Shown here piece by piece: positions 1 through 42,944 of a stretch of DNA of 46,456 nucleotides. Both the position numbers and the translations under genes were made by a program. The notes below the pieces were generated by a model that had not been told where the DNA came from, did no database searches, and saw only the letters and a list, made by a program, of their open reading frames with translations. Position 1 is the first letter of the stretch, and each line of letters starts with the position of its first letter. Origin of the DNA: a virus (lineage: Duplodnaviria > Heunggongvirae > Uroviricota > Caudoviricetes); the IMG/VR virus record IMGVR_UViG_2563366990_000004; one strand, 5' to 3'.

Positions 1-79
1 AAATACTGTCACGGAAAGTGCAGGCCTGGATGTGATGGAAATCATGTTTCCGGCGCATCCTGTTGATATGGATAATTTT

Positions 80-409
80 TCAGATTTCCGGAAGTCCGTA
101 TTTTGCCCGTGCGCGGTTACATGCTTCATTCGCGATGCCATTTTCGCCGGACATTGCGAATTCCCGGCATGTGGACGGACGGTTCTTGTAAACAGAGCAA
201 TATGCGTTTTTACCCGGAGTTCCCGCCAGAGCGACACATCGGGGATTTTTCTGACTGGTGCCGCGCATACAGCGATGAAAGGGGGATATTTGCTCAGTGA
301 GACTGACCGGAACCTTTCCGCCAGCATCGTCAGCTTCTGCCCAGTAAAAAGAGACGCGGAAAAATGCACAACAGGCACCACACGTCATGCATGGATTGGG
401 GTTATTCAT
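80..409 (-). CDS. YkgJ-family cysteine-cluster protein (UPF0153-like); probable host gene flanking the prophage
   Basis: 109-aa ORF with N-terminal [16 protein letters not shown] cysteine cluster and further conserved Cys/His as in YkgJ-type proteins; lies on the opposite side of the tRNA-fragment att core from the integrase. The overlapping + strand ORF 32..424 is treated as its shadow. Confidence 0.5.
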
Positions 410-548
410 AATTCATCGGTATAGCGATAAATCGTAAAGAGAACAATGTACCTAGTGTGTATTGAGCTAAATATACCAATTAGTATACCAAGTGTATACT
501 AAGAGCAAAAAAAGAAAGGGGCTACCATTTGGTAACCCCTTGATTGTT

Positions 549-608
549 TGGCGGAAGCGCAGAGATTCGAACTCTGGAACCCTTTCGGGTCGCCGGTTTT
601 CAAGACCG
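549..608 (-). tRNA. 3'-terminal fragment (~60 nt) of a tRNA-Ser(UGA)-like gene; prophage attachment-site core at the integrase-proximal junction
   Basis: Reverse complement reads CGGTCTTGAAAACCGGCGACCCGAAAGGGTTCCAGAGTTCGAATCTCTGCGCTTCCGCCA: anticodon stem-loop (anticodon TGA), long variable arm, T-arm (GTTCGAATC), acceptor 3' strand plus CCA. No matching D-arm or 5' acceptor strand follows; phage DNA starts at 609. Confidence 0.55.
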
Positions 609-749
609 AAGAAAAACAAATAAAAATCAGTGTAATACGTGAAGCTGCTGAAAATTTAATCAAATTTAACACCAAGAAAAATCAAGGTGTTAGGAAGTTG
701 CTCATAGCTAGTATACCAAGTATTTTTGCCAGAAAATTTTCTGTATTGC

Positions 750-1769
750 CTACTTGCTAACCACGAGCGGCAGATCCAGTGTTGGTGTGATTTTTGTTTT
801 ACGATCGTAAATCAACACCTGATTTTCTGTTTTATGCCCGCTGAAAATTTGTTTGTCGCGACTGCTGCCTTCGTAATCAGAGATCCCCTTGGCTTTTATA
901 TCGTGAAAATTGCACCCGAACGGAACGCCAACTTTTTGCTCGGCTGAGCGTTTAGCCTGATTCCACCAGTTGTTCAGCGTTTTAGCTATGACTTTCCCGC
1001 CTTTGGTTGTATTGATCACATATTCGCATGTACAGGAAGATACATTTCGGGCTAACTGGATCGCTGTACGTAATCGCGGTGACCATTCCTTGATTTGTTT
1101 GGTGCCGGTTTTGTTTTGCTCAATGTAGATCCCTTTATCCATAATATCCTGCCATTTCAACTCAAGCACATCACCGAGCCTTGCCGCACAGAGATAGGAA
1201 ATCTCCATTGCAATGCGTAACTGTGGAATTGCTTCCGCATATATCGCTGCATACTGTTCATCGGTGATGTAAACAGTGCGGGCTTTAAGAGAGAATTTTC
1301 TGACTCCTTTGCATGGGTTATTCTTCACGTATCCACGCTCATATCCCCACCCGTATACTCGACTCAGGCTTGCCAGTTCATGATTTGCCTGGGTCTTGCT
1401 CTCAAGCCCTCGTTTATCCATGAAAATTCTTACCTGCTCAGTTTTGACATTATCAGCAAGCACTTTTCCGAATACCATCAGCAACGCCTTCTGATGTTGT
1501 CGATAATCTTTTTGGGTTCGGGGGGCCAGTTCTGTAAATGCAGGGGAGTCCATAAACATGTGCCATAATTTAGCTACGGTCATTATGTTGTGGAGTTTTG
1601 CTTTTTCCAGTTCATAATTTTGCCAGACTTTAGCTACGCTGGTTTTCCGCACTCTTCCTAGCCCTATAGTTCTTGTACTTCCTTCTGGTTTCCACACGTA
1701 ACTGTAACCATTCGATCTAACCCGCGGTGGCAGTACATTATCTTTTTTATTTTTTCTTGGTCTTCCCAT
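750..1769 (-). CDS. int: Phage integrase, tyrosine recombinase (lambda-Int family)
   Basis: 339-aa ORF next to the att core; N-terminal arm-binding-like region and C-terminal catalytic-type region (…HDIKAKGISDYEGS…HKTENQVLIYDRK) ending in a conserved Tyr context; preceded by an overlapping excisionase gene. Confidence 0.88.
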   Translation of the reverse strand: MGRPRKNKKDNVLPPRVRSNGYSYVWKPEGSTRTIGLGRVRKTSVAKVWQNYELEKAKLHNIMTVAKLWHMFMDSPAFTELAPRTQKDYRQHQKALLMVFGKVLADNVKTEQVRIFMDKRGLESKTQANHELASLSRVYGWGYERGYVKNNPCKGVRKFSLKARTVYITDEQYAAIYAEAIPQLRIAMEISYLCAARLGDVLELKWQDIMDKGIYIEQNKTGTKQIKEWSPRLRTAIQLARNVSSCTCEYVINTTKGGKVIAKTLNNWWNQAKRSAEQKVGVPFGCNFHDIKAKGISDYEGSSRDKQIFSGHKTENQVLIYDRKTKITPTLDLPLVVSK

Positions 1770-1989
1770 TGTTCAGCGCCTCAAAATCGGGTTCAGCAGA
1801 AACCAGTTCAGATGTTTTTGGCATCGTTGTCAGTCCGTGTGGAATATCCCTGCGTAGAACTATTGGTTCGTTTTTAGGACCGATTACAAATGGGATGCCG
1901 TGCAGTCTTAACTGGTGTTGCTGTTTTGTGTATCGCTCGTATTTCGTGATCTCTTTAATCTCTGCTGGAGATAGAGTTAATTCGTACAT
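1747..1989 (-). CDS. xis: Excisionase-like protein (Xis)
   Basis: 80-aa basic ORF immediately upstream of and overlapping int by 23 nt on the same strand, the classic xis-int arrangement. Confidence 0.6.
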   Translation of the reverse strand: MYELTLSPAEIKEITKYERYTKQQHQLRLHGIPFVIGPKNEPIVLRRDIPHGLTTMPKTSELVSAEPDFEALNNGKTKKK

Positions 1990-2056
1990 GTGGTCACGTG
2001 CCTTTACAGCATGACCGCCGCCACTATAGCTGGTGGGCGGCGATATGGGTTGAACA

Positions 2057-4495
2057 TTAAAAATCAGCCTGACTCGGGATCAGTTTTTGCCAGATAGCTG
2101 AAACGTATTTTGCCTGATAACGGGCGTCATCAAGTGCATTATGGCGCTCACCTTCGAATGGAATAGCCGTTCTGGCATCGAAGTCTATGGCTTTCCCCAG
2201 CTCAACGATTGTGCGTACATCGCGATCGTTGTAGTAACGCCACGGGCAGGGGATCCCCTGCCGTTCGTATGAACGGCGCAAAATCGTGTTGTCGAAGTTG
2301 GCTCCATTTCCCCAGACCTGAACAAAAAATTCACCGGAGTTTTCGTCGATAAATTCCCGCAGTTGTAACAGTGCATCATCTAACGGGATTTCATCGGTCA
2401 TAATGGCAGATTGCGCTTCGCGTGATTGCTTAAGCCACCATTTAATGGTGTCCCGATCAATGACTCCGCCAGCAGTTTCCAGATCGATAGTCTTACTAAA
2501 TTCCGGTCCCATATCTCCGGTTTGCGGATCGAAAAATATTGCACCTATTGAGATGATCGGGGCATTAGGATTTTTTCCCATGGTTTCAAGGTCGATCATT
2601 AGATGGTCACACGTCCTGCTGGTGGATGTGATTTCGTGATGACCGTTCACCGCAATTAAGGGATCTGCCGCTTCGCCAGTTTCACTATCGCTGGTGTGAT
2701 GCTGATCGTTACCAGCATTCTCATTGTTCGGATGTTCAGCGCCTTCTATTTCCTCCGGATCATCTTCCTGAACTTCAGCCTGATTTTTTTCATCGAATGT
2801 TTCCTGGTATGTTGCGTCGCCCATCACCGCGCCACAGTCAGGACAGTTGCCGCCACCGCTCTGACCGCAGGCGGTGCAGACTTTTTCCTCTTCCTGTTGC
2901 GCTACTGGTTCGGATTGTTTCGTTTCTGGCTCGTCTTGTAACGCATTTTGGCTGTTTTGTTCTGCTTTCTGGTCGTTCTGTTCCGTTTCTAGCTGGTTCT
3001 GGTTCACAGAATCGCAGGTTTCAATCCCCTTAACCCATTTCGAATCATTCGGGTCGCTAATCCCTTCAACAAACTCACCACGAGAAGCGGCAAGCAATTT
3101 GTCGGCATCTGGTCGACTGATGTCTGCTGCCTCCATAATTTTATTTACTTCTTCAGCGGTAACTTTTACCTGTGACTTGTCATCCAGCGGCTGCGGGTCC
3201 TGATGATGTTCAACTGTATCCGCTGCCATTGTTTCAGCCGTTGCCTGTTCATCTGCCATTGCGCCAGATGGTTGCGGGTTTTCTTCATCATTTTTTTCTT
3301 CTTCTGTTTTGCACTCAGCAGCCAGTCCGTCGTTAATTTCTTCCAGGATATCTTTTTCCGGTGTATGCCGGGCAGCCATGAGCGTTTCAGCTGTGGGATT
3401 CTCGTGATCAGTTTCTGTCAGGTTGGCATTGATATACCCCTGAAGGCGTCCCGGGTAGTGATAAAACTCAGGGTGGGCGCTCCGGATAAGTGCAAAAATA
3501 GCTGCGCGGGAATAGTCCAGGATACCAGGGGTTGCGCGAAGTGCTGCGGACCATTCCCTGAACGGACTTTCTTTTTTCAGGACGATTTCTTTTGCGCGAC
3601 GATAAACGCTCACGGGTATTTCATAAATATTAAAATCCATCGGAAGCGTGGCTGCTGCAGCCTCCACATCCAGAGTATCGAGGGTGTGTACTAAGTCAGG
3701 ATTACGATCGGTTTTATTTCCGCCACCGGCATTTGCACCGGAAGCCGTGCGGGTGATGCGAGAAACACGATTTCCTTTCATCCACTCTTTTGTCAGCAGA
3801 CCTCGATCGGTATAGTCAGCGTCCAGGTATGCTTCGAAAAAAGCAGTCATTAACCCCAGACTGGAATTAACGGGATTAGGGAAAACTTTGTCTGTGTCGC
3901 GTACCAGTTTATGAAGGTCGCGAATCTCCAGCGGGTCGAGCAGCTTTGTGTTGTGGGAAATAGCCAGGGCAGTAACAGCCGGCAGTTCTTCAGCTCGTGC
4001 GATATGTAATGCCTGAAGTTCTTCCCGTGAAACGTGCGTTACCGGTTTTTCGCTGCCATGTTGCGCAAGCCAGCGAATGGGTAGTTCCTGACCGGAAATT
4101 GGCAGGAGCATATTATCCTCAATCTCAGCCATGTCTTCGCCATTGACGTTGGTATTGTCAGTGCTGGCTGGTTTTTCCTGAACTGAGGGGGAAGGCGCTA
4201 TAAATATCATTGTGATGCCATCTTCCCCGCCTTTTTCATAGCGGTTGCAGAATTCAGTATCAAACACGCCTTCCGGTGGAAGGTCATTCACAACGGGGAA
4301 ATGGACGCGGACGGGTTTTTTGAAATCATCAGCGTCGTAGCCTGCCTCGTCCATTGCAACAACGCACCGCGAGATTGCTACAGATAATTTCTTTTCTGTA
4401 CTCCAGTAAAAACCCCCTTTAATCCCAAAGCGTTTTCTGACCTTGTCATTTTTTGCTTCGCAATATAGCGCAAATTCTTCTTTATCAGTGCTCAT
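2057..4495 (-). CDS. Large early-region exonuclease with C-terminal DnaQ-like (DEDDh) 3'-5' exonuclease domain; central acidic low-complexity linker and CxxC…CxxC zinc ribbon
   Basis: 812-aa ORF. C-terminal 180 aa contain IDLETMG … NGANFD … HNALDDA motifs typical of DnaQ/RNase T-like exonucleases. Sits where Rac carries recE; no RecT/Bet-like annealase gene is visible nearby. Confidence 0.7.
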   Translation of the reverse strand: MSTDKEEFALYCEAKNDKVRKRFGIKGGFYWSTEKKLSVAISRCVVAMDEAGYDADDFKKPVRVHFPVVNDLPPEGVFDTEFCNRYEKGGEDGITMIFIAPSPSVQEKPASTDNTNVNGEDMAEIEDNMLLPISGQELPIRWLAQHGSEKPVTHVSREELQALHIARAEELPAVTALAISHNTKLLDPLEIRDLHKLVRDTDKVFPNPVNSSLGLMTAFFEAYLDADYTDRGLLTKEWMKGNRVSRITRTASGANAGGGNKTDRNPDLVHTLDTLDVEAAAATLPMDFNIYEIPVSVYRRAKEIVLKKESPFREWSAALRATPGILDYSRAAIFALIRSAHPEFYHYPGRLQGYINANLTETDHENPTAETLMAARHTPEKDILEEINDGLAAECKTEEEKNDEENPQPSGAMADEQATAETMAADTVEHHQDPQPLDDKSQVKVTAEEVNKIMEAADISRPDADKLLAASRGEFVEGISDPNDSKWVKGIETCDSVNQNQLETEQNDQKAEQNSQNALQDEPETKQSEPVAQQEEEKVCTACGQSGGGNCPDCGAVMGDATYQETFDEKNQAEVQEDDPEEIEGAEHPNNENAGNDQHHTSDSETGEAADPLIAVNGHHEITSTSRTCDHLMIDLETMGKNPNAPIISIGAIFFDPQTGDMGPEFSKTIDLETAGGVIDRDTIKWWLKQSREAQSAIMTDEIPLDDALLQLREFIDENSGEFFVQVWGNGANFDNTILRRSYERQGIPCPWRYYNDRDVRTIVELGKAIDFDARTAIPFEGERHNALDDARYQAKYVSAIWQKLIPSQADF

Positions 4496-4587
4496 TGATA
4501 AACCTCATAACTATTTTAAGGTTGTACGAACCCCTGCCATTGCTGGCATGCTTAATCAACGGGTATGGCGTTAATATGGCTGGTGGA

Positions 4588-4776
4588 TTATCCAGCCGGT
4601 ATTTCGTTATTCAGGTACAGCGATACTTTTTTTAACGGGAGGCATTCGCCAGAAATTTTTTGCTCGTCTCTTGCCCGGAGGCATGATTCTTTACTGGCAT
4701 AAATTCCGGTAATCACATTCTGTGGCTCACCCGTTATAAGAAAAACAGTCATTACCAGTGCAAATGCAGAAGTCAC
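4588..4776 (-). CDS. Hypothetical small early protein with hydrophobic N-terminus
   Basis: 62-aa ORF in the early-left operon, translationally coupled to the upstream ORF (4-nt overlap 4773-4776). Confidence 0.35.
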   Translation of the reverse strand: MTSAFALVMTVFLITGEPQNVITGIYASKESCLRARDEQKISGECLPLKKVSLYLNNEIPAG

Positions 4777-4961
4777 TGCTGCCCCCCGAAAATACCAAGT
4801 TTAAGAAGGGCAATTCTGGAGAGTATGGAATTATCATTGAGAAGATAAGGCTCATATTTTCTCATCTTAATGGCATCTTCAGTAAACTCCCGGTTACTGA
4901 GCAGAACACCAATATCAAAACACCCTTCAGACGTATTAACGTTTGGTAATAACGTTTCCAT
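4773..4961 (-). CDS. Hypothetical small early protein
   Basis: 62-aa ORF, same strand and operon context as the exonuclease; overlapping stop/start with the next ORF. Confidence 0.35.
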   Translation of the reverse strand: METLLPNVNTSEGCFDIGVLLSNREFTEDAIKMRKYEPYLLNDNSILSRIALLKLGIFGGQQ

Positions 4962-5446
4962 TATCGTGTCCTCAACAATGAATTTTGTGATGTGGTGCCT
5001 GGTGCCTCCAGGTGACGTTAACCAGTTAACAATTAACGCCGGAATACAGAAGGATGCCCGTTACGCCCCGTAAAAGACCACTTTACGGATTTAACTGTTC
5101 CGCGTGCGCATAGCCGCATTCACCGCATCACAAAATTCACTTTAAAAAGGATGGCAGAGCAGTCATGGAGTCGAACTGATGCCACCAAAGACTACACATG
5201 GATATTGTGGCGGGGCTGTCACTTAAGCGTATGGTCAGCCTGACAACCCGGTGTCCTCAAGGGGAAGGAATAACCCCGCCATACTTACCGCCGCGCCATT
5301 TCGCGGATTGCCACAACCGGAAGCGCACGGTCGAATTAAATTTAACGACAAAGTACAGAGAGACGAGCTTCTCCGTGCGCTTTCGTGTTATGCCCTGACT
5401 TTTCAGGGTAAATTAACCAGTGGCAACCTGTTTTTACTGGTGCTAA

Positions 5447-5653
5447 TCAGTTAGTGTTTCTGGCTAACCAGCGACGCGCGCCAGCTTCGGTTTTAAACTT
5501 TTTACTTTTGGTATACGTCATCGCGGTAAACGTGCCGTCCTGGTTAGGGAACACACCGCATACCAGAGATTCGTTGTTGCCAAGATTGAGCGTATCCATG
5601 TTGACCTCATTTCCCCTTAACGCCGGGGTAGCGGAACAAAAAACCTGCTGCAT
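5447..5653 (-). CDS. Hypothetical small early-left protein (first leftward gene after the OL-like operator; possible shorter product from internal Met at 5599)
   Basis: 68-aa ORF; position equivalent to the first pL-transcribed gene of lambdoid phages but not Arg-rich N-like. Confidence 0.35.
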   Translation of the reverse strand: MQQVFCSATPALRGNEVNMDTLNLGNNESLVCGVFPNQDGTFTAMTYTKSKKFKTEAGARRWLARNTN

Positions 5654-5764
5654 AGTTAAACGTAATCCCCGCCGTCATGTTCATACGCCTCAGGCTGGCT
5701 ACTTAACCCCTGACCACTGCCGGGTAACTCGAAGTATTGCCCTGCGTTCTGTGGGTCGGGGTGG

Positions 5765-5830
5765 GTGTATGGATACAATTTACAAATTAAAATTTAACTG
5801 GTCAACATGTTTATTATTAAATTTGTAATT
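5765..5830. promoter_or_regulatory. OL-like operator/promoter region with inverted repeat TTACAAAT … ATTTGTAA
   Basis: TTACAAAT at 5780-5787 and ATTTGTAA at 5821-5828 in an AT-rich spacer; the same half-sites recur between the repressor and cro-like genes (7033-7070). Confidence 0.4.
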
Positions 5831-5873
5831 GCGAGCTGTTGCATTAGTCCCAAAATGGGACTACTATACAGTT

Positions 5874-6176
5874 ATGAAGATTATCTCAGTTAAAACACTC
5901 AGGGATTTTTGGGCGGAGAATCCTGATGCAGAACAACCGCTAAGGGCATGGGTGGATGAGGCGGCAAAAGCTGACTGGAAAAGCCCAGCAGACATTAAGG
6001 CACAATACCGAACGGCCAGTATATTGAAAAACCGGCGCGTGGTATTCAACGTAAAAGGTAATCATTACCGTTTAATTGTTGCAATTGCGTATCAGCGAGG
6101 ATGGGTATTTGTTAAATTCATCGGAAACCACAAGGAATACGATGCTATTGATGCTGATACCATCGAACTGGAGTAA
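5874..6176 (+). CDS. higB: HigB-family type II toxin (mRNA interferase)
   Basis: Product MKIISVKTLRDFW…VFNVKGNHYRLIVAIAYQRGWVFVKFIGNHKEYD matches the HigB signature (compare E. coli HigB …VFNVGGNELRVVAMV…HKEYD). Toxin-first order, stop 2 nt before the antitoxin start. The track ORF begins at a TTG (5829); ATG 5874 preferred. Confidence 0.8.
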   Translation: MKIISVKTLRDFWAENPDAEQPLRAWVDEAAKADWKSPADIKAQYRTASILKNRRVVFNVKGNHYRLIVAIAYQRGWVFVKFIGNHKEYDAIDADTIELE

Positions 6177-6178
6177 GC

Positions 6179-6538
6179 ATGAACATCAAACCTATTCGTA
6201 CAGAGCAAGATTATGAAGCCGCGTTGCGTGCTGTTGAACCCATGTTCGACAATGAGCCCGAAATTGACACGCCTGAGGGGGATTTTTTTGAGGTGATGTG
6301 TTTGCTAATAGAGGAATATGAAAAAAAACATTATCCCATTGAGCCACCATCCCCAATTGAAGCTATAAGATTTCGCATGGAACAGCAGGGGCTGACTGTG
6401 AAAGATTTGGAACCCGCAATTGGGAAAAAAAATCGGGTTTATGAGGTGTTGAATGGTACCAGAAGCCTTACGTTACCAATGATTCGCCGTCTTCATAATC
6501 AATTTGGTATCCCCCTGGAAAGCCTGGTTGGATTATAA
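6179..6538 (+). CDS. higA: HigA-family antitoxin (XRE-type HTH)
   Basis: 119 aa; C-terminal HTH LTVKDLEPAIGKKNRVYEVLNGTRSLTLPMIRRLHNQFGIP resembles E. coli HigA (LTLSDLPEIGSKSMVSRVLSGKRKLTLEHAKKLATRFGIS); tightly coupled to higB. Confidence 0.8.
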   Translation: MNIKPIRTEQDYEAALRAVEPMFDNEPEIDTPEGDFFEVMCLLIEEYEKKHYPIEPPSPIEAIRFRMEQQGLTVKDLEPAIGKKNRVYEVLNGTRSLTLPMIRRLHNQFGIPLESLVGL

Positions 6539-6584
6539 AATCTGCTAGTCATTTGCCTGATGCTCGTTCCAGAAAAGGAATGCA

Positions 6585-6983
6585 TCAGGCAGTTTTGTTT
6601 TTCTGCCGCAGTAACTCTTCAAGTTTCCGTTTATAGAAATCGCGTTTTTGCTCCATATCACGAATGATCTGCTCTGCGTCGCTTTGAGGTAACTCATCTA
6701 AAAGCGATATGATTTTTCGTTGTTGTTCTGTAAGTTGCGGTTGGTTGTCATTACTGGATACAGCCATTTTATCGCCGAGAGTTTCTTCTTCCATAAAGAA
6801 CCAATGGACGGGATGTTGTGAGAGCTCTGCTAATTTTTCCAGTTTATCCATTCTTGGCATCACGCCTTTCAACCAACCTTGCACGGATTGGGGTTTTACA
6901 CCAAGACGTCTTCCCAGCTCTGACTGGTTTATATTCAATTCCTGCAACACCTGCTGAAGGCGTTTTACAAAGATCATCACCAC
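6585..6983 (-). CDS. Prophage repressor, XRE-family HTH without peptidase domain (RacR/DicA-like, CI functional analogue)
   Basis: 132 aa, N-terminal HTH (LNINQSELGRRLGVKPQSVQGWLKG); divergently transcribed from a Cro/YdaS-like gene across a 120-bp operator region. Confidence 0.75.
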   Translation of the reverse strand: MVMIFVKRLQQVLQELNINQSELGRRLGVKPQSVQGWLKGVMPRMDKLEKLAELSQHPVHWFFMEEETLGDKMAVSSNDNQPQLTEQQRKIISLLDELPQSDAEQIIRDMEQKRDFYKRKLEELLRQKNKTA

Positions 6984-7103
6984 CCCTCGTAAACTAGTTC
7001 CGCGATCCTACAGAAAAAATTGATAAGTGGCATTACAAATAGAAGTTGAAATTTAAATTTAAATTTGTAATCATCGGTGTCATCGTAAAGTTCGGAGGGA
7101 AAC
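6984..7103. promoter_or_regulatory. OR-like divergent promoter/operator region between repressor and cro-like gene
   Basis: Inverted repeat TTACAAAT (7033-7040) … ATTTGTAA (7063-7070) with AAATTTAAATTTAAATTT between; candidate rightward promoter TTGAAA (7046-7051) with AATCAT 17 nt downstream. Confidence 0.45.
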
Positions 7104-7364
7104 ATGCAAAAAAGTACTCAAGTGAAAATCCTGTCAATAATGAGCCAATCAGAATTAGGGCGTCGTCTTGGTAAAACACCGCAAACCATAAGTGGGTGGT
7201 TTAAAAAACGAGTGCCAGCGGAGGAGGTTATACCAGCATGTGAGGCGCTTGACTGGGGAGTAACTCCGCATGAATTGCGCCCTGATAAATACCCTAATCC
7301 AACCGATGGTTTACCTGTTGAGTATCAGGCTAACGCACAAGCAGCGGCGGGAGTTGATTCATGA
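7104..7364 (+). CDS. Cro-like DNA-binding protein (YdaS family)
   Basis: 86 aa; HTH SQSELGRRLGKTPQTISGWF and the YdaS-type motif WGVTPHELRPDKYP; first rightward gene after the operator. Confidence 0.7.
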   Translation: MQKSTQVKILSIMSQSELGRRLGKTPQTISGWFKKRVPAEEVIPACEALDWGVTPHELRPDKYPNPTDGLPVEYQANAQAAAGVDS

Positions 7365-7798
7365 AAATCAAGCATGAGCACATCCGCATGGCGATGAATG
7401 CGTGGCTGCTTTATCCGAGGGTAGGGCGCAAAAAAATCGCTGATGATATAGCGACAGCATATTTTGAGCTTGAAATGACTTATCCACCAATGCATGACAC
7501 CTCTACGACAGAGGGTATTGGATTGAATATACAAAATATTTTTCGCTGGCTTGAAAAGGATACGCCTGATGCTGTTGAAAAAATTCAGGCACTAATTCCG
7601 GCTATCCTGACTGTTCTTCCGCGTGAACTGCGTTATCACCTCAGTATTTTTGACACTGTTGAGCGCCGTGCATTACTGGCGGCGCAGGAAGCGTTGAGCA
7701 CGGCAATTGATGCACATGATGATGCTGTCCAGGCCGTTTACCGGAAAGCGTATTTCAGCGACGGCGGGTCATCCGGCGAGTCTGTTGTGGTGCATTGA
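7361..7798 (+). CDS. YdaT-family protein (CII-like regulator position)
   Basis: 145 aa, overlapping start/stop with the YdaS-like gene; same racR-ydaS-ydaT arrangement as the Rac prophage. Confidence 0.65.
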   Translation: MKIKHEHIRMAMNAWLLYPRVGRKKIADDIATAYFELEMTYPPMHDTSTTEGIGLNIQNIFRWLEKDTPDAVEKIQALIPAILTVLPRELRYHLSIFDTVERRALLAAQEALSTAIDAHDDAVQAVYRKAYFSDGGSSGESVVVH

Positions 7799-7884
7799 TA
7801 TTTATGCCAGCCCCCTGCTGATTCTGTTGATTGGGGAATCACAGAATATCACCAGAGGATGGTTCGTCACAAGATGAGGCAATT

Positions 7885-8895
7885 ATGGCCGCATTACCAT
7901 ACATGCAACTGTACATAGCTGATTACCTGGCTGACACCATGCATTTGTCCGCAGAGGAGCACGGTGCGTATTTGTTGCTGATGTTCAATTACTGGCAAAC
8001 AGGGAAACCAATACCTAAAAACAGGCTGGCAAAAATTTCCCGTCTGACTAACGAGCGATGGGCTGATGTGGAACCATCCTTGCGGGAGTTTTTTTGCGAT
8101 AACGGCGATGAATGGGTGCATCTTCGGATTGAGGAAGATCTGGCATCAGTCAGGGAAAAATTGACCAAAAAATCAGCCGCCGGAAAAGCATCTGTTCAGG
8201 CCAGAAGAAGCAGAAAGGAAGTATATGTTCAAACAAAACAAGAGAGAGATTTAACAGGTGTTCAAACAAATGTTGGTGTTGTGTTTGAACATGACGCAAA
8301 CACAAAAGCAACTAATAAAGATACAGATCTAAAAGAATTAAACCCCACACATAACGTGCGTGAACGCGAGAGTATTCCGACCAGTGAGTTGCATGGTGCG
8401 CCGTTGCAGACAGCCGAACCTGAATACCTGGACGGCCTGAGCGAACCGATCGGGAAATTTTCGATGACCACTGTCTGGCAGCCGTCGCCGGATTTTCGAC
8501 AACGGGCAGCAGTGTGGGGTATGGCTCTGCCTGAGCCGGAATTTACACCTGCTGAGCTTGCCGCATTCCGGGATTACTGGATGGCGGAGGGGAAGGTTTT
8601 CACACAGGTTCAGTGGGAGCAGAAATTTGCCCGCCACGTGCAGCACGTCAGGGCACAGGTAAAACCAGTCAGCAAGGGGGTAAGCCATGCAGCATCAGGT
8701 GGCACGGCATCACGGGCAATTCAGGAAATCCGGGCAGCACGCGAACAGTGGGAACGAGACAACGGATTTATCAGCAACGGAAACGGCCTGGAAGCTGTGG
8801 GAGCTTATGGGGGAGGTGTATTCGAACCGCTGGACTCAGAAGAACGGGGCCGCACCTTCGAAGCTCTGGATTGCCCAGATTGGCGCGATGACTGA
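7885..8895 (+). CDS. Replication initiation protein, DUF1376/YdaU-like (functional analogue of lambda O)
   Basis: N-terminal MAALPYMQLYIADYLADTMHLSAEEHGAYLLLMFNYWQTGKPIP is the YdaU/DUF1376 signature; ATG 7885 has a GAGG RBS (track ORF starts at TTG 7831). AT-rich iteron cluster lies inside the gene. Confidence 0.7.
   Translation: MAALPYMQLYIADYLADTMHLSAEEHGAYLLLMFNYWQTGKPIPKNRLAKISRLTNERWADVEPSLREFFCDNGDEWVHLRIEEDLASVREKLTKKSAAGKASVQARRSRKEVYVQTKQERDLTGVQTNVGVVFEHDANTKATNKDTDLKELNPTHNVRERESIPTSELHGAPLQTAEPEYLDGLSEPIGKFSMTTVWQPSPDFRQRAAVWGMALPEPEFTPAELAAFRDYWMAEGKVFTQVQWEQKFARHVQHVRAQVKPVSKGVSHAASGGTASRAIQEIRAAREQWERDNGFISNGNGLEAVGAYGGGVFEPLDSEERGRTFEALDCPDWRDD
8224..8340. repeat. Candidate origin of replication: iterons plus AT-rich stretch inside the initiator gene
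   Basis: GTTCAAACAAA twice in direct orientation and an inverted copy TGTTTGAACA, followed by AACTAATAAAGATACAGATCTAAAAGAATTAAAC; matches the lambda arrangement of ori iterons within O. Confidence 0.5.
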
Positions 8896-19711: not shown

Positions 19712-20434
19712 ATGGCAGTTGTCTGTTCTGTAATTCTGGTTTGTTCCCCGATCAATATTTTTATTGAGAAAGACAAACTTTCACTTGTGCCGGGCATGGT
19801 CATTCTGGTCACCAGAAACATCAGGGAGCTTTTTCGCACTTACACAGACCGGGTTAAGGTTGCTGATATAAATCACGATATAGTCAGTCAATATCTGGAA
19901 GGTGGGCGAAGGCGGATGAGCTCCCCACAGGCATGTTTTCCGCATTATCTCACTTCTGGCATTCATCAGCCTGTACTGGCAGAGGCGTTAATTACTAATC
20001 ATGGATTTCCCAGTGCTCCTTCTGGTGATTTGTCCACGATGACAGGGCTTTCATGTCTTTCTCTGTTTGCCAACGATGAGAGCCTGTCATCATTTTTGTC
20101 AAGGTGTTTAAGCAATACAAGCGATAAAGTCAGGGCAATAATTCAGAGCGATATATCCGTAAACTGGAAGCTTGGTGTTATTGCGTTACAACTGCATATG
20201 AGCGAAAGCTTGTTAAAGAAAAAGCTTAAAGATGAAGGAAACAGCTTCAGCCGCCTGTTGCTGGAAGAGAGGATGCGGGGGGCAGTAAATATGTTATGCT
20301 TTCAATATGGACGGGGAGCGATAGTGGCAGAAAAATGCGGTTATTCAAGCCTGTCTTACTTTATATCAGTATTCCACAGGTATTATGGAGTACCTCCTGA
20401 CAAATATGTGTCTCTGCATATGGTTGACTTTTAA
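19712..20434 (+). CDS. AraC/XylS-family transcriptional regulator (cargo gene)
   Basis: 240 aa; C-terminal double-HTH region (…FSRLLLEERMRGAVNML…IVAEKCGYSSLSYFISVFHRYYGVPP); visibly AT-rich relative to flanking phage genes. Confidence 0.75.
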   Translation: MAVVCSVILVCSPINIFIEKDKLSLVPGMVILVTRNIRELFRTYTDRVKVADINHDIVSQYLEGGRRRMSSPQACFPHYLTSGIHQPVLAEALITNHGFPSAPSGDLSTMTGLSCLSLFANDESLSSFLSRCLSNTSDKVRAIIQSDISVNWKLGVIALQLHMSESLLKKKLKDEGNSFSRLLLEERMRGAVNMLCFQYGRGAIVAEKCGYSSLSYFISVFHRYYGVPPDKYVSLHMVDF

Positions 20435-20556: not shown

Positions 20557-20795
20557 CTCACAATTCAGACGGTTGACAGTTGTCTGTTTTGCGGGGAGTT
20601 TGTTAAAAGAAACTGGCATGGTGAATCCCCCTGAGCGGAGGGGCGACTGGTGCATCAGGTGTTATCTTTGATACCCAGGAAAGTGAACGCGCGGGTTCGG
20701 TGGCACCGGGCTGAACTCACCGGGAGGCACCCGGCACTATGCGCATGATGTACAGATACGCGGCTTCAGCCCCTCTCCGGAGGGGCTTTTCTGTG
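20557..20795 (+). repeat. Repeat unit A (~240 bp) ending in an intrinsic terminator
   Basis: Starts CTCACAATTCAGACGGTTGACAGTTGTCTG; internal hairpin CCCCCTGAGCGGAGGGG; shared block GCGGGTTCGGTGGCACCGGGCTGAACTCACCGGGAGGCACCCGGCA; ends CAGCCCCTCTCCGGAGGGGCTTTTCT. Confidence 0.6.
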
Positions 20796-21042
20796 CCTTA
20801 TGCATCACAGTTTCTGGAACCCTGAGTACTACAGTATCAGTCAGGGTGCTATATTTGCAGATGTGATGAAAGCCTGCCGGCAGGCAGGGCGTATCGGAAA
20901 TGACCCAGTAAGAGAAAACGTTGACTCAGATACCGGTGCTGAGTTACCGGGAAACCGGCATCACATGACCGCTATCCTTCATGGCTCTCTCAGGAGAGCC
21001 TTTTTACTGGAGAAAACCGCTTCCCCGTAAAATGCCGTGTTG

Positions 21043-21282
21043 CTCACAATTCAGTCAGTTGAAGGTTGTCTGCCCGACTGAGAATTTGTTAAAAAATTTC
21101 TGCATGATGAATCCCCCTGTGCGGAGGGGCGGCTGGTGTACGGAATGGTCTCTGATGATCGTTAGCGAGAATGACGCGGGTTCGGTGGCACCGGGCTGAA
21201 CTCACCGGGAGGCACCCGGCATCATGTAATGAACGGTACATAGCGCTACTCTTCAGCCCCTCTCCGGAGGGGCTTTCTTATG
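21043..21282 (+). repeat. Repeat unit B (~240 bp), diverged copy of unit A, ending in an intrinsic terminator
   Basis: CTCACAATTCAGTCAGTTGAAGGTTGTCTG…CCCCCTGTGCGGAGGGG…GCGGGTTCGGTGGCACCGGGCTGAACTCACCGGGAGGCACCCGGCA…CAGCCCCTCTCCGGAGGGGCTTTCTT; a further hairpin with minus-strand terminator polarity at 21290-21315. Confidence 0.6.
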
Positions 21283-21511
21283 GATAAAAAAAGCCCGCAT
21301 GGTGAGATGCGGGCAGCAAGGAATAAACAACAAAACGTGAAGTAATCAATTTTTCAGCTGGCGAATAATACCCGACAGTAATCACTCTGCGCAACTGCGC
21401 GGCCTTTTTCGTATTGCGGGCTGTAGTCTTCCTCCTGCCATTGTCCTGTAACTTCCGGACTTCAGCCCGCCCCTCATCTGACTCACAACATTATCCCGAC
21501 CGGGAGGATTC

Positions 21512-23479
21512 ATGGCATTTAAACACTATGACGTGGTCAGGGCGGCGTCGCCGTCAGACCTTGCGGAGCGACTGACTCAAAAACTGAAGGAGGGGTGGCA
21601 GCCATTTGGCAGTCCTGTCGCCATCACGCCTTATACCCTGATGCAGGCCATTGCGGCGGAAGGTGATGTCACCACACCTGTGGTGGTGAAGCCGTCGGAT
21701 GGAGAAGGCACAGTTATCAGCGCCACCAGCGACCCGGAGTATTACTTTGTTGTGGTTCTGGCAGGGCAGTCAAACGGCATGTCGTATGGTGAAGGCCTTC
21801 CGCTGCCGGAGACATATGACCGTCCGGACCCGCGTATTAAGCAGCTGGCGCGCCGAAGTACGGTGACACCGGGAGGTGCCGCCTGTAAGTATAACGACAT
21901 TATTCCGGCGGACCATTGTCTGCATGATGTGCAGGACATGAGCCGTCTTAACCATCCGAAAGCGGACCTGTCAAAGGGGCAGTACGGAACCGTGGGGCAG
22001 GGGCTGCATATCGCCAAAAAACTGCTGCCGTTTATACCGGCGAATGCGGGCATTCTGCTGGTTCCGTGCTGCCGTGGTGCTTCGGCATTCACAACGGGTG
22101 CAGACGGCACATACAGCGAATCAGCCGGTGCATCGGAAAATTCACTGCGCTGGGGTGTGGGTAAGCCGCTGTATCAGGATTTGGTGAGCCGGACTAAAGC
22201 CGCACTGGCGAAGAACCCGAAAAACCGTCTGCTTGCGGTGGTGTGGATGCAGGGAGAAGGTGATGTGGCAGTGGGGACGCATGCGCAGCATTCAGGGCTG
22301 TTTAGTGCGATGGTGAATCAGTTCAGAACGGACCTTGCCGGTCAGGCATCACAGAGCACAGGAGGCAGCGCATCAGCGGTACCGTGGGTTTGCGGGGACA
22401 CAACGTATTTCTGGAAGCAGCGTCATGCGGAAGGGTATGCATCAGTATACGGAGGGTATAAGGGTAAGGAGTCGCAGAACATTTTCTTTGTACCGTTAAT
22501 GACGGATGAGAATGGTGCGAATGTGCAGACCAATGACCCGGCAGAAGACCCGGACCTGGAAGCCGTCGGTTATTACGGTTCAAAGTGGCGTAATGACCAG
22601 AAGACCTGGACATCTGTGGACAGGGCCAGCCATTTCAGTTCATGGGCTCGCCGTGGGATTATTTCCGACCGTCTGGCAACGGCGATTCTGGTGCATGCCG
22701 GGAGAACCGCTGAATTCATTACCGGAAAACAGCCTGATACGGTGAAGCCCACCGGACCTTCCGGTGAAGGCCCGGAGAGAGAGCCGGAAGCCCCGGTCAG
22801 TAACCGAACCCTGATGAGTCTGCTGGCGTCCGGTGAAGACCTGGCATCACAGGGCTGGCGCTATTATCACAAACCGGCGAGCGGAGACAGTGTTGATAAA
22901 AACATCGCTGAGGCTGTGGTCAGTGATGAGGGTGCCACCGGTGGTAAGGCCCTGCAACTGAACAAACCGGAAAGCCACATCTGGTTTCTGGAGCATGATG
23001 CCGCCGGGCAGGGGGCAGAGTTGCTGAAGAAAGGCGGACGTGTGAGCGTGCGGTTTAAGGTGCCGGGCGCACTGGTGCCGAATCAGTTTGCCCTGGGTAT
23101 TTACTGGCAGTTGTCGTCCCTGCCGGAGGGAGTGACGCTGTCAGAGGAAGGCAACGACATGCTGATGTCCTTCTTCCTGCAGACGGATGCGACGAACCTG
23201 AACGCGATGTACCACAAGAAGCAGAATGCGAAGCTGGATACGTTCGGGGTCTTTGATAACGGATGGCACACACTGGCTTTTGAGTTTGCCGGAAACAACA
23301 GCATTCAGGTGACGCCGGTACTGGATGAGAAACGGGGTACACCGTTCACACTGGTGAAATCTCCGGCATCAGGGGCGGCGGACAAACTGCAACTGACAGG
23401 CATATCAAAGGCGGCGACATATACGCTGCTGATTGACAGTGTGAAGGTGGAAGTGAACAACGCGGATGCCGCGGCATGA
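21512..23479 (+). CDS. nanS-p: NanS-p-type sialate O-acetylesterase (N-terminal DUF1737, SASA/SGNH esterase core)
   Basis: 655 aa; N-terminus MAFKHYDVVRAASPSDLAERLTQKLKEGWQPFG (DUF1737-like) and esterase motif VVLAGQSNGMSYG; sits between Q and the lysis genes as nanS-p does in Stx and related lambdoid phages. Confidence 0.75.
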   Translation: MAFKHYDVVRAASPSDLAERLTQKLKEGWQPFGSPVAITPYTLMQAIAAEGDVTTPVVVKPSDGEGTVISATSDPEYYFVVVLAGQSNGMSYGEGLPLPETYDRPDPRIKQLARRSTVTPGGAACKYNDIIPADHCLHDVQDMSRLNHPKADLSKGQYGTVGQGLHIAKKLLPFIPANAGILLVPCCRGASAFTTGADGTYSESAGASENSLRWGVGKPLYQDLVSRTKAALAKNPKNRLLAVVWMQGEGDVAVGTHAQHSGLFSAMVNQFRTDLAGQASQSTGGSASAVPWVCGDTTYFWKQRHAEGYASVYGGYKGKESQNIFFVPLMTDENGANVQTNDPAEDPDLEAVGYYGSKWRNDQKTWTSVDRASHFSSWARRGIISDRLATAILVHAGRTAEFITGKQPDTVKPTGPSGEGPEREPEAPVSNRTLMSLLASGEDLASQGWRYYHKPASGDSVDKNIAEAVVSDEGATGGKALQLNKPESHIWFLEHDAAGQGAELLKKGGRVSVRFKVPGALVPNQFALGIYWQLSSLPEGVTLSEEGNDMLMSFFLQTDATNLNAMYHKKQNAKLDTFGVFDNGWHTLAFEFAGNNSIQVTPVLDEKRGTPFTLVKSPASGAADKLQLTGISKAATYTLLIDSVKVEVNNADAAA

Positions 23480-38573: not shown

Positions 38574-41166
38574 TCTTGTTATTGATTTGAGTCTGGATGC
38601 GGCCCGGTTTGATGAACAGATGGCCCGGGTACGCCGCCATTTTTCCAGTCTGGAGGCGGATGCCAGAAAAACCGCCAGTACTGTTGAACAGGGGCTGAGC
38701 CGACAGGCGCTGGCTGCACAAAAAGCCGGGATATCAGTCGGACAGTATAAGGCTGCCATGCGCACACTGCCCGCACAGTTCACGGATATTGTCACTCAGC
38801 TTGCCGGTGGTCAGAATCCCTTCCTTATCATGCTGCAGCAGGGGGGGCAGATCAGCGATTCATTCGGTGGACCGCTCAGCCTGCTTACCCTGCTGAAGGA
38901 GGAACTTCTCGGGATCAGGGATGCCTCTGAATCATCAGAGGATTCGCTGTCAGATACGGCAAATGCACTGGCTGAAAATGCCCGGAATGCCGGTGAACTG
39001 GGACGATTTATGTCGGTGGCCCGTGTGGCGGCAGGTGGCGGGGTTGCCGTACTGGCCGCGCTTGCTGCTGCCGCCTGGCAGGCAGAGCAGGCTGACCGGG
39101 CCTTATTGCGTTCACTGACCCTGACCGGAGGGGCGGCTGCCACCACAACGGCAGAATTGTGGAAAATGGCCGGGGTGATCAGCGATGAAGCCGGTGGTGG
39201 TATCAGACAGGCGGCAGAAAATCTGGCCCGTCTGGCAGAAAGCGGGAAATATACCGCCGGGCAGCTACGGATCATGGGGGAAACCTCTCAGAGATGGCTG
39301 CAGACGGTGGGGGACGATGCCGGGAAGGTGGAAAAAGCCTTTGAAGGGATTGCAGCAGATCCGGTGAAGGCGCTGGCCTCCCTGAATCAGCAGTATAACT
39401 TCCTGAGCGTTTCCCAGTTACGCCATATTGATGAGCTTGAGCGCACGAAAGGTAAACAGGCTGCGGTGACGGAGGCGATGTCCCTGTTTGCGGATGTCAT
39501 GAATGCACGTCTGGAGCAACTTGATAAAGCGGCCACGCCGGTGGAAAAAATCTGGGACGATGTTAAAACCTGGACTTCTGACGCATGGGCATGGATAGGT
39601 GATCATACACTGGGGGCACTCAGTCTGATCACTGACGTGGTGGCAGGAACCGTTGAACAGGTGAAGCTGCTGCTTGTGCAGGGGGATCTGGCGCTGGCTG
39701 AATTTATTCAGTCAGCCTGGGAAACGACAAAGAATGTGCCCGGCGTTGGTGCGTTGTTTGGTGAACTGGCAGAAGAGAACCGCGTATTTATTGAGAAAAC
39801 AAAACGCGATGAACTGGCGCTGAGAAAATCCATTGCGGAACGGGATGTGCGTATACGCCAGGGGGAAATGGGGTACATCAACCGTTCGCGTGCAACAGGC
39901 GTCAGCAAAGGTCCGGGGCAGCAGGAAGCCGTCAGCCGTCTGGCTGAAGAGCTGACAGGTAAAAAGCATACATCACCGAAAACGCGCTCTGCCGGGGAGA
40001 GGGAAGAGGAGCAGGCAAGAGAGGCTCTGCTTGCCCTTGAAGCTGAGCTCAGGACGCTGGAAAAACACAGCGGTGCGAATGAGAAAATCAGTCGGCAGCG
40101 CCGTGATTTATGGAAGGCGGAAAGTCAGTATGCGGTCCTGAAAGAGGCTGCCACGAAACGACAGTTATCCGGGCAGGAAAAATCCCTGCTGGCGCATAAA
40201 GACGAGACGCTGGAGTACAAACGCCAGCTGGCTGAGCTGGGCGACAAGGTTGAATACCAGAAACGCCTGAATGAGCTGGCACAGCAGGCGGTGCGGTTTG
40301 AAGAGCAGCAGAGCGCGAAGCAGGCCGCCATCAGCGCAAAAGCCCGTGGTCTCACCGACCGTCAGGCACAGCGGGAGTCTGAAGAGCAGCGTCTTCGTGA
40401 CGTGTACGGCGATAATCCGCAGGCGCTGGCACAGGTCACCGGGGCACTGAAACAGACATGGGCGGATGAAGACATGCTGCGCGGTGACTGGCTGGCCGGG
40501 CTGAAGTCCGGCTGGGGGGAGTGGGCGGAAAGTGCGACGGACAGTTTTTCGCAGGTTAAAAGTGCGGCCACGCAGACCTTTGATGGTATTGCACAGAATA
40601 TGGCGGCGATGCTGACCGGTGCAGAGGCAGACTGGCGGGGATTCACCCGTTCGGTGCTGTCCATGATGACAGAAATCCTGCTTAAACAGGCCATGGTGGG
40701 AATTGTCGGGCGTATCGGCAGCGCCATTGGTGGTGCTTTCGGTGGTGGTGCATCTGCTTCCTCGGGGACGGCCATTGAGGCTGCGGCGGCGAACTTCCAT
40801 TTCGCGACCGGAGGATTTACGGGGACGGGCGGCAAATATGAGCCTGCGGGGATAGTTCACCGCGGGGAGTTTGTTTTCACGAAAGAGGCAACCAGCCGGA
40901 TAGGTGTGGGGAATCTTTACCGTCTGATGCGCGGCTATGCGGAAGGTGGTTATGTGGGTGGTGCCGGAAGTCCGGCGCAGATGCGGCGGGCGGAAGGTAT
41001 TAATTTTAATCAGAACAATCACGTGGTGATTCAGAACGACGGTATAAACGGACAGGCGGGGCCGCAGCTGATGAAGGCGGTGTATGACATGGCCCGTAAG
41101 GGGGCGCAGGATGAACTCCGGCTGCAGTTGCGTGATGGCGGTATGTTATCAGGGAGCGGGCGATGA
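38554..41166 (+). CDS. H: Tail tape-measure protein H
   Basis: 870 aa; N-terminus MSQPAGDLVIDLSLDAARFDEQMARVRRHFS… and long stretches near-identical to lambda H (e.g. …LLALEAELRTLEKHSGANEKISRQRRDLWKAESQYAVL…). Confidence 0.9.
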   Translation: MSQPAGDLVIDLSLDAARFDEQMARVRRHFSSLEADARKTASTVEQGLSRQALAAQKAGISVGQYKAAMRTLPAQFTDIVTQLAGGQNPFLIMLQQGGQISDSFGGPLSLLTLLKEELLGIRDASESSEDSLSDTANALAENARNAGELGRFMSVARVAAGGGVAVLAALAAAAWQAEQADRALLRSLTLTGGAAATTTAELWKMAGVISDEAGGGIRQAAENLARLAESGKYTAGQLRIMGETSQRWLQTVGDDAGKVEKAFEGIAADPVKALASLNQQYNFLSVSQLRHIDELERTKGKQAAVTEAMSLFADVMNARLEQLDKAATPVEKIWDDVKTWTSDAWAWIGDHTLGALSLITDVVAGTVEQVKLLLVQGDLALAEFIQSAWETTKNVPGVGALFGELAEENRVFIEKTKRDELALRKSIAERDVRIRQGEMGYINRSRATGVSKGPGQQEAVSRLAEELTGKKHTSPKTRSAGEREEEQAREALLALEAELRTLEKHSGANEKISRQRRDLWKAESQYAVLKEAATKRQLSGQEKSLLAHKDETLEYKRQLAELGDKVEYQKRLNELAQQAVRFEEQQSAKQAAISAKARGLTDRQAQRESEEQRLRDVYGDNPQALAQVTGALKQTWADEDMLRGDWLAGLKSGWGEWAESATDSFSQVKSAATQTFDGIAQNMAAMLTGAEADWRGFTRSVLSMMTEILLKQAMVGIVGRIGSAIGGAFGGGASASSGTAIEAAAANFHFATGGFTGTGGKYEPAGIVHRGEFVFTKEATSRIGVGNLYRLMRGYAEGGYVGGAGSPAQMRRAEGINFNQNNHVVIQNDGINGQAGPQLMKAVYDMARKGAQDELRLQLRDGGMLSGSGR

Positions 41167-41492
41167 AAACCTTTCGCTGGAAAGTGAAGCCGGATATGGA
41201 GGTGAACTCGCAGCCGTCGGTGCGTGAAGTGCGTTTTGGTGACGGGTACTCACAGCGTATGGCGGCAGGGCTGAATGCTGACCTGAAAACATACCGGGTG
41301 ACGCTTTCCGTGACCCGGGAGGAGGCCCGGCATCTGGAAGCGTTTCTGGCAGAGCACGGGGGCTGGAAGGCATTTTTGTGGAAGCCACCCTATGCATACC
41401 GGCAGATAAAGGTGACCTGCGCCGGGTGGTCTGCGCGGGTCGGGATGTTGCGCGTTGAGTTCAGCGCGGAGTTTAAGCAGGTGGTGAACTGA
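41163..41492 (+). CDS. M: Minor tail protein M
   Basis: MKTFRWKVKPDMEVNSQPSVREVRFGDGYSQR… matches lambda M. Confidence 0.88.
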   Translation: MKTFRWKVKPDMEVNSQPSVREVRFGDGYSQRMAAGLNADLKTYRVTLSVTREEARHLEAFLAEHGGWKAFLWKPPYAYRQIKVTCAGWSARVGMLRVEFSAEFKQVVN

Positions 41493-42190
41493 TGCAGGAT
41501 ATTCACGAAGAAAGCCTGAACGAGTCGGTTAAGTCAGAGCAGTCACCGCGGGTGGTGCTCTGGGAAATCGACCTGACGGTGCAGGGCGGTGAGCGGTATT
41601 TTTTCTGCAATGAGCTGAATGAAAAAGGGGAGCCGGTGACCTGGCAGGGGCGGAAGTATGAGGCGTACCCGATTGAGGGCAGCGGCTTTGAGATGAACGG
41701 AAAGGGCAGCAGTGCCCGCCCGTCGCTGACGGTCTCCAATCTTTTCGGCCTTGTCACCGGGATGGCGGAGGATTTGCAGAGCCTGGTGGGTGCCACGGTG
41801 GTCCGTCGCCGGGTGTATGCGCGTTTTCTGGATGCGGTGAATTTTGTGGCAGGCAATCCTGAGGCCGACCCGGAGCAGGAGCTGACGGACCGGTGGGTGG
41901 TGGAGCAGATGTCATCGCTGACGGCCATGACGGCCTCGTTTGTGCTGGCGACACCGACGGAGACGGACGGTGCGCTGTTTCCCGGTCGCATCATGCTGGC
42001 GAACACCTGTATGTGGGATTACCGGGGCGATGAGTGCGGGTATAACGGTCCGGCAGTGGCGGATGAGTTCGACAACCCCACCACGGATATCCGGAAGGAC
42101 AGATGCAGTAAATGCATGCGCGGGTGTGAGATGCGCGGCATGGCGGCCAATTTTGGCGGTTTCCTTTCCATCAATAAACTTTCGCAGTAA
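41492..42190 (+). CDS. L: Minor tail protein L
   Basis: 232 aa, lambda L length and position; ATGA overlap with M. Confidence 0.85.
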   Translation: MQDIHEESLNESVKSEQSPRVVLWEIDLTVQGGERYFFCNELNEKGEPVTWQGRKYEAYPIEGSGFEMNGKGSSARPSLTVSNLFGLVTGMAEDLQSLVGATVVRRRVYARFLDAVNFVAGNPEADPEQELTDRWVVEQMSSLTAMTASFVLATPTETDGALFPGRIMLANTCMWDYRGDECGYNGPAVADEFDNPTTDIRKDRCSKCMRGCEMRGMAANFGGFLSINKLSQ

Positions 42191-42200
42191 ATCCCGTTTT

Positions 42201-42944
42201 ATGACACAGACTGAATCAGCGATTCTGGTGCATGCCCGGCGGTGTGCGCCAGCGGAGTCGTGCGGCTTCGTGATAAGCACCCCGGAGGGCGAACGGTACC
42301 AGCCCTGCATGAATATCTCCGCAGAGCCGGAGGCGTATTTTCGTATTACACCGGAAGACTGGCTGCAGGCACAGATGCAGGGGGAGATTGTGGCGCTGGT
42401 CCACAGTCATCCCGGTGGTCTGCCCTGGCTGAGCGAGGCGGACCGGCGGCTGCAGATAAAGAGTGCCCTGCCCTGGTGGCTGGTCTGCCGGGGTGAAATT
42501 CACCGGTTCCGCTGTGTGCCGCACCTGACCGGACGGCGCTTTGAACACGGTGTGACGGACTGTTACACCCTGTTCCGGGATGCATACCATCTGGCGGGGA
42601 TAACGCTGCCGGATTTTGTGCGTGAGGATGACTGGTGGCGCAACGGCCAGAACCTGTACCTGGACAACCTGGCGGAAAACGGCTTTTACCGGGTGTCTCC
42701 GTCCTGTGCACAGGCGGGCGATATCCTGCTGTGCTGCTTCGGCGCATCGGTGCCGAATCATGCCGCCATTTACTGTGGCAACGGTGAACTGCTTCACCAT
42801 ATACCTGAACAACTGAGTAAACGGGAGAGGTATTCTGAAAAATGGCAACGACGAACGCATTCTGTCTGGCGTCACCGCCACTGGTCCGCATCTGCCTTCA
42901 CGGGGATTTACAACGATTTGGTCGCCGCATCAGCCTGTATGTGA
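42201..42944 (+). CDS. K: Tail assembly protein K (MPN/JAB plus NlpC/P60-like)
   Basis: ATG 42201; …ILVHARRCAPAESCGFVISTPEGERYQPCMNISAEPE…ALVHSHPGGLPWLSEADRR… matches lambda K. The track ORF starting at 41940 is an upstream extension through L and is rejected as the start. Confidence 0.85.
   Translation: MTQTESAILVHARRCAPAESCGFVISTPEGERYQPCMNISAEPEAYFRITPEDWLQAQMQGEIVALVHSHPGGLPWLSEADRRLQIKSALPWWLVCRGEIHRFRCVPHLTGRRFEHGVTDCYTLFRDAYHLAGITLPDFVREDDWWRNGQNLYLDNLAENGFYRVSPSCAQAGDILLCCFGASVPNHAAIYCGNGELLHHIPEQLSKRERYSEKWQRRTHSVWRHRHWSASAFTGIYNDLVAASACM

Follow-up and report, generated by a model that had tools for sequence, protein, structure and literature searches.

Tyrosine integrases that target the 3' ends of tRNA genes are well known, among them those acting for P22 at thrW, for P4 at leuX and for lambdoid/Stx prophages at argW, serU and ssrA. 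The locus described here resembles these lambda-type systems in having a tyrosine integrase gene beside the site and a block that matches the 3' part of a tRNA gene exactly, along with repeated motifs on both arms and a small ORF over the start of int; in related genomes an intact tRNA is restored at one prophage end and a partial copy lies at the other. It differs from them in its target (serT), in the length of the identity block (62 bp) and in a terminator hairpin on the phage arm, none of which is a fundamental departure. It also resembles the tandem lambdoid prophages of STEC and EPEC, in which phage DNA lies on both sides of the att core at an internal junction, with one partial site near the host closing the array at one end and one intact tRNA at the other. 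In contrast to those arrays, the ends of any array here lie outside the window, by which we mean the whole stretch of 46,456 nucleotides that was analysed. Both serT and yccA are listed as prophage sites, and tandem prophage pairs have been described at single STEC sites (PMC8767318, PMC10673567, PMC8065619), including tandem prophage sites in O121:H19 (PMC8767318). A further tandem example is that of PPompW and Stx2a phages at ompW, and ompW tandem records were among our sequence matches.

A third point of comparison is the attP of the packaged Escherichia phage Evi (LR597642.1), which shares 87.6% identity with the window over 469-3000 and has the same order of elements: tail-fibre/cargo end, att arm with a terminator-like hairpin, 62-bp core, int, DUF4224 ORF and exonuclease. 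Evi differs from the window in carrying an EspV remnant rather than ykgJ to the left of 469, and its arms are 85-92% identical. We are confident that positions 469-749 form an attP-type site of a lambda-like temperate phage that integrates in the 3' part of serT, between yccA and hyaA in E. coli. The junction itself is probably internal to an array of at least two tandem prophages at serT. The features on which these assignments rest are as follows.

80-409, minus strand: YkgJ-family (CxxCxxCC) gene, 109 aa (Pfam PF03692, E=5.7e-12)
410-468, minus strand: region upstream of the YkgJ-like gene (promoter/5' leader), also present in serT prophages that carry YkgJ
469-546, no strand assigned: int-distal att arm, conserved in serT-integrating phages (arm identities, repeats, hairpin)
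505-541, minus strand: terminator-like hairpin (516-541) with a T-run (505-515), from fold energy and a terminator scan
547-608, no strand assigned: 62-bp identity block, the same in attB, attL, attR, attP and the window
549-608, minus strand: 3' 60 nt of tRNA-Ser(UGA) (serT), from the anticodon stem to CCA, an exact match to K-12 serT
609-749, no strand assigned: int-proximal att arm, A/T-rich (arm identities, one exact copy of GTATACCAAGT)
750-1769, minus strand: tyrosine integrase, 339 aa (Pfam PF00589, 33 bits, above the cut-off of 27.1)
1747-1989, minus strand: DUF4224 ORF, 80 aa, overlapping the start of int (Pfam PF13986, E=8.9e-9)
2057-4495, minus strand: RecE-like exonuclease, 812 aa, to the right of Int and the DUF4224 ORF

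An earlier note on this DNA had described a tRNA-Ser(UGA) copy at 540-620 of which only the 3' ~60 nt are present, and our analysis bears this out. The minus strand of 549-608, CGGTCTTGAAAACCGGCGACCCGAAAGGGTTCCAGAGTTCGAATCTCTGCGCTTCCGCCA, agrees at every position with the 3' 60 nt of the 88-nt serT gene of E. coli K-12 (annotated at L008:1326-1413), and spans the anticodon stem-loop (anticodon UGA), the variable arm, the T arm, the 3' strand of the acceptor and the CCA. As a pattern it was matched once in the window and not at all in 100 shuffles. The 5' 28 nt of the tRNA (GGAAGTGTGGCCGAGCGGTTGAAGGCAC in K-12) are absent, and A/T-rich phage sequence runs from 609 instead. ARAGORN returned no tRNA gene over the whole 46.4-kb window and Rfam at gathering score found no tRNA in it, while a permissive Rfam scan of 400-800 gave chance-level matches only, including a 13-bit tRNA-Sec, and no hidden RNA family besides the tRNA fragment. 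The serT fragment, which has no complete cloverleaf, is not a functional tRNA gene. We also considered a degraded tRNA pseudogene and ruled it out: all 60 nt are those of serT, and the breakpoint coincides with the edge of the att core in attL, attR and attP.

To define the core we compared the window with the K-12 attB (yccA-serT-hyaA), the attL of SW070917 (yccA, core, int), the attR of STEC434 (YkgJ, core, 5' part of the tRNA, then hyaA), the attP of Evi and the junctions of JE86-ST02 and RM9387. Identity with the bacterial site runs 2 nt beyond the CCA, giving the 62-bp block at 547-608, which the interval proposed earlier brackets correctly, and the block is matched at 62 of 62 positions in every one of these sites. 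It is identical across attB, attL, attR, attP and the window, and strand exchange would have to fall within 547-608. The earlier note had named two findings that would refute it, a complete cloverleaf at the site and the lack of a second copy of the core. Neither discriminates between the readings, as extra copies of the core are expected of attL and of an attP-type site alike.

What distinguishes the two is the sequence on either side of the core. The left arm (469-546, 78 bp) is 99% identical to the prophage arm at attR and 92% identical to the Evi attP, compared with 69% to the host arm on the yccA side. For the right arm (609-749) the corresponding values are 98% to the phage arm in the SW070917 attL, 85% to the Evi attP and 52% to the host. 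As both arms are of phage type, the site has the arrangement phage, core, phage and is therefore of attP type rather than an attL. Similarity to the Evi attP, to junctions in O26/O121 genomes and to three IMG/VR contigs starts exactly at 469, which marks this position as the edge of a conserved att module. The cargo to the left of 469 differs from phage to phage. The adjoining region (410-468) is 98% identical to the STEC434 attR, RM9387 and JE86-ST02 and 53-58% identical to the Evi attP and the host arm, and phages with other cargo lack it in their attP.

Both arms contain copies of a short repeat. Three 11-bp repeats, ATATACCAATT, GTATACCAAGT and GTATACTAAGA, lie within 471-504. Exact copies of GTATACCAAGT occur only twice in the window, one on each arm (483-493 and 711-721), and degenerate versions are present at 471, 478 (minus strand) and 494. 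With at most two mismatches allowed, GTATACCAAGT is matched 12 times in the window, and five of these matches, both exact copies among them, fall within the ~250 bp of 471-721. The repeats are candidate arm-type sites for Int. The left arm also carries the terminator-like hairpin, which begins 8 nt downstream of the CCA end of the tRNA on the minus strand and has an 11-bp stem (-20.5 kcal/mol, z=-4.35) that is matched in an intrinsic-terminator scan. The host serT site has a hairpin of different sequence at the same position, and in the STEC434 attR it is the phage hairpin that comes after the intact serT. The phage hairpin may therefore replace the host terminator of serT at attR after integration, if it functions as its fold predicts. 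A separate observation in the same arm is a sigma-70-like promoter match at 470-498 on the minus strand (TATACA-17-TATATT with TG), which lies upstream of the ykgJ-like gene and overlaps the putative Int arm repeats; in the promoter scan near the att site this match was not above chance.

To the right of the core, phage DNA begins directly 5' of the tRNA fragment, as had been proposed, with the right arm, int, the DUF4224 ORF and the exonuclease following from 609 on. The integrase is intact and is 100% identical to those adjoining yccA in SW070917 and in prophage 2 of JE86-ST02. RefSeq-annotated integrases at serT and integrases at canonical attL sites likewise match it at 100%. Across ten sampled places, the identical Int protein adjoins yccA in nine and lies at a tandem junction in one. 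The position of the DUF4224 ORF would fit an excisionase or directionality factor, and the order int, DUF4224, exonuclease is kept in all relatives. Prophages with the identical exonuclease adjoin yccA in all of the contigs read (24/24), and the window from 502 to 14495 is 99.91% identical to a prophage adjoining yccA in GCA_028225015.1. Beyond the exonuclease the window holds a complete set of lambdoid early and late genes, among them a repressor-type regulator, replication genes, a Q-like antiterminator, a DNA methyltransferase and a terminase, along with portal, tape measure and other tail genes that were named via the annotation of matching E. coli prophages; gpJ is cut by the end of the window. 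The phage in the window has no stx genes and no tRNAs.

Several other elements were observed in this part of the window. Rfam matches at gathering score were found for the DicF sRNA (5149-5200, minus strand), the sok antitoxin RNA of a hok/sok module (13916-14088, plus strand) and two adjacent copies of the STnc100 sRNA (20587-20796 and 21073-21285, both plus strand), the pair lying between an ORF at 19712-20434 and a 655-aa ORF at 21512-23479. Two adjacent ORFs at 5829-6538 (plus strand) correspond to a HigB-toxin/HTH-antitoxin pair in a 99.9%-identical prophage (L029), and this module neighbours the immunity region. Between a tail-assembly (lambda I-like) gene and the start of gpJ, three diverged repeats of ~230 nt occupy 43510-44215, with 60-72% identity by the repeat finder and 73% mean column identity when aligned, and with no match to an Rfam family. 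Related prophages lose alignment across these repeats, and in strain 48 the corresponding gap is only 241 bp, so that the number of repeat copies seems variable.

On the left of the core the evidence departs from what had been proposed. The YkgJ-like gene was taken to be host-like DNA beyond the 3' end of the tRNA, and a YkgJ gene is indeed part of the E. coli core chromosome, with the K-12 protein sharing 83% amino acid identity with that of the window. However, the chromosomal ykgJ is located between yagU and ecpE with no tRNA nearby, and the host neighbour of serT on this side is yccA. The identical 109-aa protein follows directly after gpJ, hok, tail fibre and DUF4376 in 10/10 sampled places. 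Its other flank is hyaA/serT in five of these, potB in four and the int side of another prophage in one. In STEC434, the DNA of which is 98.6% identical to window 55-470, the order is gpJ, hok, tail fibre, DUF4376, YkgJ, intact tRNA-Ser and hyaA. In strains 89-3156 and NMBU-W12E19 a phage tail-end block ending in YkgJ abuts potB, a different integration site, and the 3' flank of the gene in the window (1-79) aligns to prophage copies and not to K-12. Since it follows tail genes in all ten places, occurs at two chromosomal sites and has a 3' flank of prophage type, the YkgJ-like gene travels with the phage. By these sequence comparisons it is cargo at the far right end of the genome of a lambdoid phage, and not host DNA. 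Displacement of the chromosomal ykgJ by rearrangement was also considered and ruled out, as the 3' flank and the att arm are both of prophage type. The gene is a paralogue of chromosomal ykgJ, and within the stretch of 80-468 that it forms with its upstream region ~45 nt of the latter are also conserved, which suggests that host ykgJ was captured together with its promoter. The boundary drawn at the tRNA copy therefore stands as a prophage end and att site on the 3' part of serT, while the neighbour across it is phage rather than host. The whole window appears to be without visible host DNA.

The arrangement of these prophages can be read in finished genomes. In E. coli strain 48, a single-copy reference, the order is hyaA, intact serT, YkgJ, DUF4376, tail fibre, hok, gpJ and, after the remaining phage genes, exonuclease, DUF4224, int and yccA; this prophage is ~50 kb long and shares 96.7% identity with the window in its late region. 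As seen in strain 48 and JE86-ST02, the intact tRNA lies at the hyaA end and the partial copy at the yccA end, in agreement with the earlier expectation that the intact gene should be found at the other end of the prophage, which in the reference genomes is the far, hyaA-proximal one. A junction of the window type (YkgJ, core, int) is rare, being present in 3 of the 5,426 complete E. coli genomes. JE86-ST02 has two such junctions ~50 kb apart within a three-prophage array that is bounded by yccA and int on one side and by YkgJ, intact serT and hyaA on the other. In RM9387 an upstream prophage is followed by a decayed second one, with a junction of the window type between YkgJ and int, and GCA_026135715.1 has one copy of the junction and one of the attR. 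In O26:H11 strain 11368 an attP-type junction lies inside a tandem array at serT, and many O26/O121 genomes have such a junction too; unlike the window, with its ykgJ-like cargo, they carry EspF/EspV effector genes on the left.

The JE86-ST02 array merits a brief description. It consists of three tandem serT prophages (NZ_AP022811.1, 1.162-1.304 Mb) totalling ~141 kb. The first and third have identical Int, exonuclease and gpJ proteins, and the middle prophage has a YadA-like (Eib-type) gene ahead of YkgJ.

Only 608 bp are visible to the left of the right edge of the core, with the window starting 79 bp past the ykgJ-like gene and the structural genes of the neighbouring phage lying outside it, and the identity of this short stretch bears on how the junction arose. 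A prophage in GCA_001902655.1 matches positions 1-608 at 100% on its attR side, and its late genes are 99.5% identical to window 40837-46456. The 4.3 kb between these two matching stretches hold the rest of gpJ, hok, tail fibre and DUF4376. By this comparison the left 608 bp appear to be the right end of a phage of the kind that fills the window, which fits a self-tandem array or circular or concatemeric phage DNA.

The alternative that survives best is that the DNA is free phage DNA, whether circular, concatemeric, circularly permuted or an excised form in the assembly. In that case the site would be the genuine attP of a single phage, the one that fills the window, and this phage would itself end on the right in ykgJ. 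Besides the match to GCA_001902655.1, this reading can account for the size of the phage, as adding 4.3 kb to the window gives ~50.7 kb, which matches the length of the single-copy prophage of strain 48, and for the arrangement in Evi, a packaged phage in which the same order is found. However, the exact junction is found in no phage record or IMG/VR contig: its exact 200-nt sequence had no match in the genome, viral or metagenome contig collections. A 99-nt degenerate attP pattern had none in the genome contigs and matched three IMG/VR contigs, all with other cargo to the left of 469. Finished chromosomes, on the other hand, hold tandem arrays with exactly this junction, and the window, which stops inside gpJ, gives no evidence of circularity. 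We regard free phage DNA as a rather unlikely source. A related possibility is that near-identical serT phages form a self-tandem array with a live attP inside it, or that a replicative form has been captured; this we likewise consider unlikely, and slightly more so.

An assembly artefact, in which the attR side and the attL side of a single prophage were misjoined via the 62-bp repeat, would explain why the junction is rare among complete genomes and why each half is near-identical to an ordinary attR or attL half. Long-read finished genomes contain the same junction, however, and the k-mers and reads in common use for assembly are longer than a 62-bp repeat, so that a misjoin there should seldom occur; we consider this explanation very improbable. 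Lastly, a simple attL, with host chromosome bearing the YkgJ gene on the left, a displaced host 3' tRNA fragment and a single prophage on the right, can draw on the chromosomal ykgJ, the ~45 nt resembling its upstream region and the fact that true attL sites do show partial tRNA copies beside int, but is hardly credible given the phage-type left arm, the constant association of YkgJ with phage tail genes and the prophage-type flank at 1-79.

The preferred reading, an attP-type site at the internal junction of tandem serT prophages, suggests the following course of events. The phage carries a 62-bp copy of the 3' end of serT, made up of 60 nt of the tRNA and a further 2 nt, and brings its own terminator-like hairpin as well as 11-bp motifs repeated on the two arms. 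The tyrosine integrase next to the site would recombine it with its 62-bp counterpart on the chromosome, the exchange presumably taking place inside the block, with the arm repeats likely to bind Int and the DUF4224 product possibly acting as excisionase. Integration would leave a displaced partial tRNA beside int at the yccA end and, at the hyaA end, an intact tRNA that may by then have its 3' part and terminator from the phage, and the phage hairpin would be expected to terminate serT transcripts at attR. A second phage could then enter by Int recombination with the core kept in the resident attL or attR, or by homologous recombination with the resident prophage, and either route would produce an internal attP-type junction. 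At the junction in the window, the left side is the right-end ykgJ-like cargo of a lambdoid phage and the right side the int, DUF4224 ORF and remainder of a ~50-kb phage.

The serT/yccA integration module and tandem lysogeny are already known biology, and reading the site as a live attP would not add a new kind of system either. If it were a live internal attP or part of a replicative form, Int could excise single, double or hybrid phage genomes, and the phage terminator together with the ykgJ promoter region over the arm repeats might tie the expression of serT and ykgJ to the state of integration. Overall, a rule that places the boundary wherever a partial tRNA meets a familiar, chromosomal-looking gene misplaces the edge between prophage and host at this locus; it would label a phage cargo gene as host and miss that the window is phage throughout. 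Spotting attP-type junctions helps to delimit tandem prophages, which prophage finders often merge or split wrongly, and such delimitation matters for the genome plasticity of STEC and EPEC.
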